A DNA stretch of 8,770 bases from a virus (lineage: Duplodnaviria > Heunggongvirae > Uroviricota > Caudoviricetes). Where the stretch lies: IMG/VR virus record IMGVR_UViG_2700989507_000009. One strand, 5' to 3'. Position numbers: made by a program. Numbering within the stretch: position 1 is the first letter of the stretch; each line of letters opens with the position of its first letter. This document shows, one piece after another, positions 6,001-8,770 of this stretch.

Positions 6001-8770
6001 AGCGGCTTTTTCCACCCACGGCCTGATATTGCTGTACGGTGGGTTATTCCAGATTGCACCGTGGCTTATCCACTCAGAATTTAGCGCGTCGTCAGCCTCA
6101 GTTAGCCAGTGAGCGCACAGAGCGTTTTTGTCGCTCGCTGCCGAATCCAGCCAGAATCCAAACTCAATATCCAGTGCATCAAAAAGCCAAAGCGGCGTTT
6201 GCCAGCAGTCCTTGTCGTGTGCTGGCGTATTTGATTTGATAGTCATGCAGCCCGATCTCCCCATCGCGCTTTCCATTCGAGAGCCAGTCGCGCTTCGTCT
6301 GACCACTTAACGCCACGCTCTGTACCGAATGCCTGTATAAGCTCTAATAGCTCCGCAAATTCGCTTACACGCATCCTGCTGGTTGGCTGGCCTATTACCA
6401 CAAAGCCATTCCCGGCAAGGTTAGGAACAACATCCTGCTGCTTTAATGCTGCGGTAAACACACACTTCCAGCTTTCTGCATCCAGCCAGCGACCATGCCA
6501 TTCAACCTGACGAGAGACGTCACCTAAGCAGGCCCATAGCTTCCTGTTTTGGTCTAAGCTGCGGTTGCGTTCCTGAATGGTTACTACGATTGGTTTGGTT
6601 GGGTCTGGAAGGATTTGCTGTACTGCGTGAATAGCGTTTTGCTGATGTGCTGGAGATCGAATTTCAAAGGTTAGTTTTTTCATGACTTCCCTCTCCCCCA
6701 AATAAAAAGGCCTGCGATTACCAGCAGGCCTGTTATTAGCTCAGTGATGTAGATGGTCATCTTTTAACTCCATATACCGCCAATACCCGTTTCATCGCGG
6801 CACTCTGGCGACACTCCTTAAAAATCAGGTTCGTGCTCATCTTTCCTTCCCGTTCTTCCCTAGTAGCGAACCGGTAATACACCGTTCGCCAGACCTTACC
6901 TTCGATAACCAGAAGACCTGCCCGTGCCATTTTAGCCGCGGCCTGATTTATGCTGGTTACTGTTGCGCCTGTTAACGCGGCAACGTCCGGCGCACAGAAG
7001 CTATTATGCGTCCCCAGGTAATGAATAATTGCCTCTTTGCCCGTCATACACTTGCTCCTTTCAGCCCAAACTTAGCTTTGATTTCTGCGATCTTCGCCAG
7101 AGCCTGTGCACGATTTAGAGGTCTACCGCCCATGACAGGAAGTTGTTTTACTGGTTCAGGTATAGCCTCACCACGGTTAATTCGTGCGGTCATACAGGAC
7201 AGTTCATCGGCAGCCTTGCGCCGTAATTCCGCATCAGTAAGCGCATTGGCCCGCATGTTCTGATACAGGTTGGTAACCAGCCAGTAGTGCGCGTTTGATT
7301 TCCACGGATAAGACTCCGCATCCGGATACAGGCCTCGCTTCCGGCAATACTCGTAAACCATATCAACCAGCTCGCTGACGTTTGGCAGTCCGGCGATAAC
7401 GGATGCTTCTTCCCGGCACCATGCAACAAACTGCCCGGGTGATGGCAGAAATGGTCGATTCTGCCGACGGGCTACGCGCATTCCTGCGTTAACCTGTTCC
7501 ATTGTGGTGATCCCGTTTTCCCGGAAAGCCAGAACCCACTGGCGGCGGATTTCGTTCAGTTCGTTCTGGTCACGGTTAGCCAGGCTCGCCGGGAAAGTTG
7601 CCAGTAACTGGCTGAACACACCGTTGATGATCTGCGCTACCTGCTGTACCTGAGGCTTTTCGTCGTACTGTTCCGGCATGTTGTTGGCGATCCGACGCAT
7701 CTGCTCACGGTCAAAGTTAACCATCTGTGCGGCGATGTTTTTCATAAATCCACCCCGTAAATCCAGTCTGTGTTTGTCAGGTCGAGTTTTGGTTTGCTGG
7801 CTGTCACGACTGCCTGTTGCTTGTTACGGTTGATTTCGAGCTGGGTCCACTTGTCGCGGAGTTTGGCCGGGCTCAGCACATTACCGGACCAGAAGTTGTC
7901 CTGGCAGGCCCAGCGGAACAGCACACACATATCGCGGTGGTTACGTCCGTCACGTTCACGCATCAGGCGGATATCGTTAGCCCACCCTGCAAAATTCGGT
8001 TTTCTGGCTGATGGCGCGATAGTCTTCACCATGTCAAACATCCACTCTGCGGCGGTCAGGTCTTCTGCTGTCCCCCATGCAGCATCAGGTTTCACCACAG
8101 AAAGGTCGTTTTCTGGCTGGTCTGAACCGCCCCGGGTTTCCTGGAGAGTGTTTTATCTGTGAACTCAGGCTGCCAGATCATCGTTTCCGATGGAAGCATA
8201 ATAAGCTTTTTCTGCTTCTGCCGGAGGAGTATGGCCCAGCCTTTCCAGCAATCGTCGATTGTTATACCAGTCCACCCACGTGAGTGTGGCCAGTTCCACT
8301 TCTGCACGGTTTTTCCAGCTCTTACGGTGTATTACCTCCGCTTTGTAAAGACCATTGATGCTCTCCGCCATCGCGTTGTCATACGAGTCGCCTGTACTTC
8401 CTGTTGATGCCAGTAATCCGGCTTCCTTAAGCCGCTGTGTGTAGGCCAGCGATACATACTGAGAACCTTTATCACTGTGATGGACCGTGCCGGACGGTCG
8501 ACGGGCCCATAACGCCTGCTCCAGTGCATCCAGCACGAATGTCGTCTCCATGGACGATGAGACCCGCCACCCCACAATGTATCCGGCAAACACATCAATG
8601 ATGAACGCCACATAGACGAAGCCCTGCCATGTGCTGACGTAAGTAAAATCAGCCACCCACAGCTGGTCAGGTCGTTCTGCCACGAACTGACGGTTTACGC
8701 GGTCGCCTGCGGCAACGGCTTTCCGGCTGATGGTCGTACGGACCTTTTTACCCCGGAGCGCATCGGAAAT

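Follow-up and report, generated by a model that had tools for sequence, protein, structure and literature searches.

Gene content of the O-P-IS629 region

The stretch of DNA analysed here (the window, 8,770 nucleotides) is the entire 8770-bp contig JZDZ01000060.1 (GCA_000965655.1) in reversed orientation. In St. Olav173, an STEC strain of serogroup O145 and phylogroup E, whose genome was obtained from MiSeq reads assembled with SPAdes 3.5.0 (PMC4432327, PMC6033998), it represents the right early region of a lambdoid prophage, which is defective. All genes of the O-P-IS region are encoded on the minus strand, and the following features were identified there, with the evidence used for each given in parentheses.

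7044-7745, minus strand: replication gene P, intact, 233 aa (ORF list and Pfam PF06992)
7742-8122, minus strand: 3' remnant of gene O, 381 nt, 126 codons plus stop (BLASTP, profile search, and alignment to lambda ori)
8120-8122: GTC flanking the breakpoint, the 3 nt with which the ori palindrome ends (O nt 502-504; lambda 39187-39189)
8123-8164, minus strand: right terminus of IS629 (IRR, TGAACCGCCCCGGGTTTCCTGGAGAG...), with non-coding sequence as far as the stop codon of orfB (frame translation and alignment)
8165-8758, minus strand: 3' part of IS629 orfB, 197 codons plus TGA (NCBIfam, Pfam, and nucleotide identity)
8759-8770: terminal 12 nt of the contig (cgcatcggaaat), diverging from all IS629 copies compared

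Gene P is an uninterrupted ORF that matches Phage_lambda_P (PF06992) over the full length of the profile (positions 1-162 of 162, E 9.9e-62 in Pfam), and the records of relatives name the same gene 'replication protein P'. Its start overlaps the stop codon of O (ATGA), the C-terminal part of O thus being translationally coupled to P; the ORF overlapped by the P ATG reads DQPENDLSVVKPDAAWGTAEDL...IYGVDL. The ren-nin-Q genes downstream of P are intact. The first-pass annotation had also regarded the morons of the prophage as intact, which is true of lpxR, present as a whole gene at 2936-3895, and is not a call that can be made for the nanS-p-type esterase gene, the integrity of which cannot be asserted because the other contig end cuts it. 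Only the first 101 codons of this gene (the DUF1737 part) are found in the window (1-302, minus strand); among relatives, nanS-p is intact in 2015C-3163, frameshifted in ESDR8, and split by another IS629 in WL1467.

The O remnant represents the last 42% of the gene. As the intact reference we used the 299-aa O protein of a prophage of strain 2015C-3163 (locus L007), to which the remnant corresponds at residues 168-299, with 126 of 126 residues identical apart from a 6-aa gap (BLASTP). The gap marks a short allele in which an 18-nt in-frame deletion in the linker (O nt 547-564) has removed IQSGSK, compared with lambda and most relatives; the deletion site lies at window positions 8076-8085, between ...cccccat and gcagcatc.... 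In complete E. coli genomes, the short allele was seen only in O genes that are already truncated, among the matches listed. The reading frame of the remnant (DQPENDLSVVKPD...) starts right after the IS terminus, its first retained codon being GAC (8120-8122), and ends with the stop at 7742. Profile searches with Pfam and NCBIfam detected no Phage_rep_O domain (PF04492 / TIGR01610) in the remnant; in the intact O of 2015C-3163, this domain occupies residues 22-115 (E 5.6e-36). An identity look-up of the 118-aa ORF of the O remnant matched four short contigs. A perfect 12-nt direct repeat, GTTTTCTGGCTG, is present in the remnant at 7999-8010 and 8108-8119, with 3 nt separating the second copy from the IS junction; the repeat is probably due to chance.

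The element adjoining O was named IS629 at first pass, and this identification holds: its terminus aligns with the IRR of 1310-bp copies, and its nucleotide identity to named copies is 99.7-100%. The terminal inverted repeat begins TGAACCGCCCCGGG, the element ends TG...CA, and the sequence is identical to the IRR of the 1310-bp copies at 11 loci. Positions 8123-8758 are identical at 636 of 636 positions to the complete 1310-bp IS in strain C325 and share 99.7% identity over 640 nt with the phage BP-4795 copy annotated 'OrfB protein of IS629'. The orfB transposase gene reads toward O-P, i.e. in the same direction as these genes. Its fragment matches positions 187-369 of 369 of the NCBIfam model transpos_IS3 (225.8 bits, above the cut-off of 160), which is the C-terminal half only, and contains DDE/rve domains according to Pfam (rve, E 1.7e-28; rve_3; and rve_2). 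The IS629 copies of relatives are 1310 bp long and carry an annotated orfA-orfB frameshift. The contig includes 648 nt of the element before it breaks off, and orfA, the frameshift site, the left end, and the target duplication lie beyond the window. The contig stops at this point because IS629 is a repeated sequence, the most prevalent IS in O145:H28 genomes (PMC3893438), and the far side of the IS is unreadable from the assembly for the same reason; the contig break thus explains why the far side is missing.

The O reading frame directly abuts the IS terminus, as had been noted from the sequence, with the boundary shifted by 1 nt: the terminus (TGAACCGCCCCGGGTTTCCTGGAGAG) starts at 8123, and base 8122, which had been assigned to the IS, belongs to O. 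The warning that ORF finders might join orfB to the O remnant proved unfounded. The two are in the same frame, but one-frame translation of the minus strand gives the end of orfB (...GNDDLAA*), VHR*, NTLQETRGGS (the IS terminus), and then O, and an ORF finder cannot fuse them because two in-frame stop codons intervene (TGA at 8165-8167 and TAA at 8153-8155); the recorded gene calls for the contig keep them separate. No sigma-70-like promoter was found in a scan of 7600-8770, and the idea that the O remnant, P, nin, and Q are driven by a promoter reading outward from the IS is thus unsupported.

Position of the break within the replication origin

When the window is aligned with lambda and the intact relative, the break falls at O nt 502, within the 28-nt ori palindrome (O nt 477-504, corresponding to lambda 39162-39189). 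This palindrome bounds the lambda-type origin on the right, and the iterons lie upstream of the break; the lambda record places four of them within O, at 39034-39118. The intact relative is nearly identical to lambda in its iterons and its AT-rich region, both of which are located wholly upstream of the window break. On the P side, 25 of the 28 nt of the palindrome are therefore missing, along with the AT-rich unwinding region, all four iterons, and the origin-binding domain of O. No iteron-like repeats were found in 7742-8200, compared with four 20-nt iterons in the intact gene. These results bear out two points made from the sequence at the outset, namely that only the C-terminal part of O (residues 168-299, with the ATGA overlap) is contiguous with P and that the P side contains neither the DNA-binding domain nor the iterons (no domain match, no repeats, and the lambda alignment). 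The arrangement thus resembles the O-ori-P region of phage lambda in that P is full length and the C-terminal part of O is collinear with it, and differs in that O lacks residues 1-167 and that nothing of ori is left except 3 nt of the palindrome.

Without the N-terminal domain of O and the iterons, no O-some would be expected to form. From lambda biology, we infer that the prophage would be unable to start theta replication by itself, since its O remnant could at most bind P. Since the P side lacks the origin-binding domain, iterons, and AT-rich region, the replication module is predicted to be non-functional whether the junction arose by insertion or by deletion, and the earlier description of the prophage as replication-defective appears sound under either scenario. 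For annotation, the prophage should be recorded as replication-defective and O as a pseudogene. If ori has been retained beyond the IS, O could be provided in trans by other lambdoid prophages of the same host.

Relatives and the origin of the junction

A junction-specific megablast search covered 5,426 complete E. coli genomes, none of which contains the identical junction (O nt 502 joined to IRR), and no exact match to the O/IS junction was found in a collection of species-representative genomes, in which E. coli is represented by one genome. The nearest junction in the complete genomes is that of C325, 25 nt apart. Four strains (C325, ESDR8, HEC0422, and HEC0399) share 99.9-100% identity with the window over 5500-8122 together with the same short O allele. 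Including draft contig L005 and Logan contig L003, six short-allele relatives were compared, and all six lack the 5' half of O at the junction, as follows.

C325: O from nt 477; identical IS in the same orientation, no target duplication; far side with a gene fragment, xis, int, and ybhC
ESDR8: O from nt 503; IS629 of another subtype (616/636) in the opposite orientation, no duplication; far side with cI
HEC0422, HEC0399, and draft contig L005: O from nt 480; no IS; O joined directly to a truncated N
Logan contig L003: O from nt 506; no IS; O joined to an int fragment beside ybhC

The deletions in these close relatives reach cI, N, xis, or int. For the inverted IS of ESDR8, we considered homologous recombination between inverted IS copies and rejected it: such an event would leave the O/IRR joint unchanged, and the ESDR8 element is of a different subtype (616/636).

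These sequence comparisons make an IS629-associated deletion more likely than a simple insertion: the junction probably marks one edge of such a deletion, in which the 5' half of O and ori were lost together with further parts of the early region. The argument is drawn from relatives because the exact junction occurs in none of the complete genomes. C325 and ESDR8 lack the 3-bp target duplication that true simple IS629 insertions have; intact insertions elsewhere are flanked by duplications of AAC, GTC, ACC, or TAA. Given the identical IS, its shared orientation, and flanks with 100% identity, the most parsimonious history would start from a C325-like ancestor, with the IS at O nt 477 followed by xis-int-ybhC, in which a further IS-adjacent deletion of 25 nt took place. 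The 25-nt offset from C325 could equally reflect an independent insertion, because there is only 1 nt of microhomology. If a C325-type deletion is the true event, the far side should read IRL + ctgctatgaccactgg..., followed by xis-int-ybhC. Deletions adjacent to IS629, ranging from a few nt to >40 kb and dependent on transposase and the IS-excision enhancer (IEE), are described in a passage of PMC9943667 that cites Kusumoto 2011, and the IS-less fusions in HEC0422 and L003 have the form that would be expected of excision-with-deletion events.

The first-pass annotation had described the IS as inserted in O, which implies that the 5' half of the gene lies beyond it. Under such a simple insertion, the 5' half of O would be intact beyond the IS together with ori, cII, cro, and cI, GTC would be duplicated, and the split O would be the sole defect; the far side would then read IRL followed by GTC + AGAGGATTCGCCAGAATTCTCTGACGAATAATC... 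on the plus strand, leading into the remainder of ori and the 5' half of the gene. A reading of IRL + GTC + AGAGGATTCGCC... would likewise indicate a simple insertion. Events of this kind do occur, since prophages of strain 124 (nt 240-242, AAC) and FWSEC0007 (nt 433-435, GTC) carry IS629 in O with 3-bp duplications; the flank in the window, GTC, is a triplet found duplicated elsewhere, and the far side lies beyond the contig end. The relatives speak against it, however: all six carrying the short O allele are deleted at this spot, and the identical IS of C325, 25 nt away, leads into xis-int without a duplication. In addition, a search of complete E. coli genomes with a chimeric query, composed of the IS left end and the AT-rich/iteron DNA of ori, did not find the reciprocal product of a simple insertion at nt 477 or 502, an outcome that the first-pass annotation had itself named as a pointer to deletion. 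With close relatives showing deletions and no reciprocal product found, the insertion claim is unsupported, and we regard this event as unlikely. Claims of insertion versus deletion made from draft assemblies need long reads.

Two further explanations concern the contig itself. The element may be a 636-nt IS629 fragment, truncated or rearranged at 8758, with the last 12 nt representing other DNA. Every BLAST match ends at 8758, and after 636 perfect matches, only 7-8 of the 12 nt at 8759-8770 agree with 11 full IS copies; in ESDR8, which has the same prophage type, IS629 copies that are nested or truncated also occur elsewhere in the prophage. Against this, 12 bases at the tip of a short-read contig are weak evidence, the similarity to the IS around the joint (10 of 15) is what a variant copy or a graph tip would give, and no independent sequence carries the joint, for which no exact match was found in the species-representative genomes (one for E. 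coli) or in the loci compared. Truncation of the element is thus improbable, and a contig-end artefact, a variant or mosaic IS copy, and an internal IS junction are all possible sources of the 12 nt. An assembly chimera, in which the assembler joined the prophage edge to a repeated IS and the O-IS junction is unreal, would fit a contig that ends in a multicopy repeat, and STEC drafts do fragment at IS and prophage repeats. Yet the same contig is recorded in two samples, closed genomes of the same prophage lineage have genuine IS629 junctions at distances of 25 nt and 1 nt, and the join falls exactly at the IS terminus TG..., which makes a chimera highly implausible. An IS629-associated deletion remains our preferred account of the junction.

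Breakpoint clustering and decay of the early region

In the short-allele lineage, five distinct breakpoints (O nt 477, 480, 502, 503, and 506) were seen among the matches listed, and all five are located on the ori palindrome (nt 477-504) or ≤2 nt from it (window 8095-8122; L001 7121-7148; L002 20440-20449; L012 ~9620-9645; and L003 ~2065-2075). Two of them carry IS629 in the same orientation, one carries an inverted element of a different subtype, and two have no IS. At least two are independent, as they lie 1 nt apart and carry IS629 elements of different subtypes facing opposite ways. Among the matches listed, complete genomes of this lineage showed no intact O. In other prophages, IS629 junctions were found at O nt -1/1, 55, 240, 433, 444, 552, and 555 among the matches listed, at least four of these further junctions falling within O nt 433-555. 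The sample of breakpoints is biased by the queries used. It is doubtful, if conceivable, that the 28-nt ori palindrome is a preferred target of IS629 strand transfer or IS629-associated breakage; the cluster may represent a hot spot of a structural kind or the stepwise erosion of a single ancestral break, and we treat it as a lead rather than a result. If the preference were real, the structure of the origin would steer IS-mediated inactivation of prophage replication, and the clustering offers a cheap lead for studies of target choice by IS629 and IEE.

Among IS3-family elements, IS1397 and ISKpn1 insert specifically into palindromic REP units. They provide a precedent for the choice of palindromes within this family, which bears only on the breakpoint clustering. 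Unlike these elements, IS629 has no established target specificity, no target preference having been found for it (PMC3271280).

The copy in the window resembles the IS629 of EHEC prophages (IS3 family, with isoforms annotated as IS1203 or IS1203v) in its terminal repeat, its orfB, and its location in a prophage; in O157, 62% of IS629 copies are found in prophages (PMC3271280). It differs from the known cases in the junction at O nt 502, absent from all 5,426 genomes. Cryptic lambdoid prophages, such as DLP12, and the defective prophage pool of O157 Sakai show the same pattern as seen here, with the late and nin cargo kept and the immunity and replication regions lost or broken beside an IS3-family element. 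In DLP12 of E. coli K-12, it is the ren region that is interrupted by an IS3 copy. Loss of the early region beside an IS3-family element was also found in C325, MMC-J-0105, and EC21GDE043. IS629 disruption and IS-bounded deletion of the early region are already known as a well-documented route of prophage decay in EHEC and STEC, of which this prophage is an ordinary case, and only the particular junction at O nt 502 is unrecorded.

The early-right region of lambdoid prophages has repeatedly been struck by IS629-type elements. In intact relatives of this prophage (O103, O121, and other strains), an IS629 is present between kil and gam with a target site duplication of ACC (L007 15902-17211 and L008 20216 onward); it has the same orientation as the IS in the window and is of a different subtype (606/636). 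A second IS629 copy in O could recombine with the kil-gam copy, deleting the immunity region. Near-reciprocal IS629 junctions in O were found in two unrelated genomes, FY26 (L015 2599) and EC21GDE043 (L011 3549), one of which keeps O nt 1-552 and the other nt 555-900, and both share a transposase allele (WP_151327001.1), a pattern that suggests a single ancestral insertion and subsequent deletions on opposite sides. IS629-type elements also lie between ren and ninB in CFT073 (L019 2544-3757), where O is intact, and exactly at the cII/O boundary in MS 119-7 (L021 3147-4360), with a target site duplication of TAA.

In this small sample, the triplet beside IS629 ends was repeatedly GTC or its complement, GAC. 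It occurs in the flank in the window, in the target duplications of FWSEC0007 and WL1467, and in the flanks of FDAARGOS_1301 and C325 (window 8120-8122; L017 1286-1288 and 2599-2601; L016 2600-2602; L008 6200-6202 and 7513-7515; and L001 7146-7148). The recurrence of this flank hints at a weak target preference of IS629.
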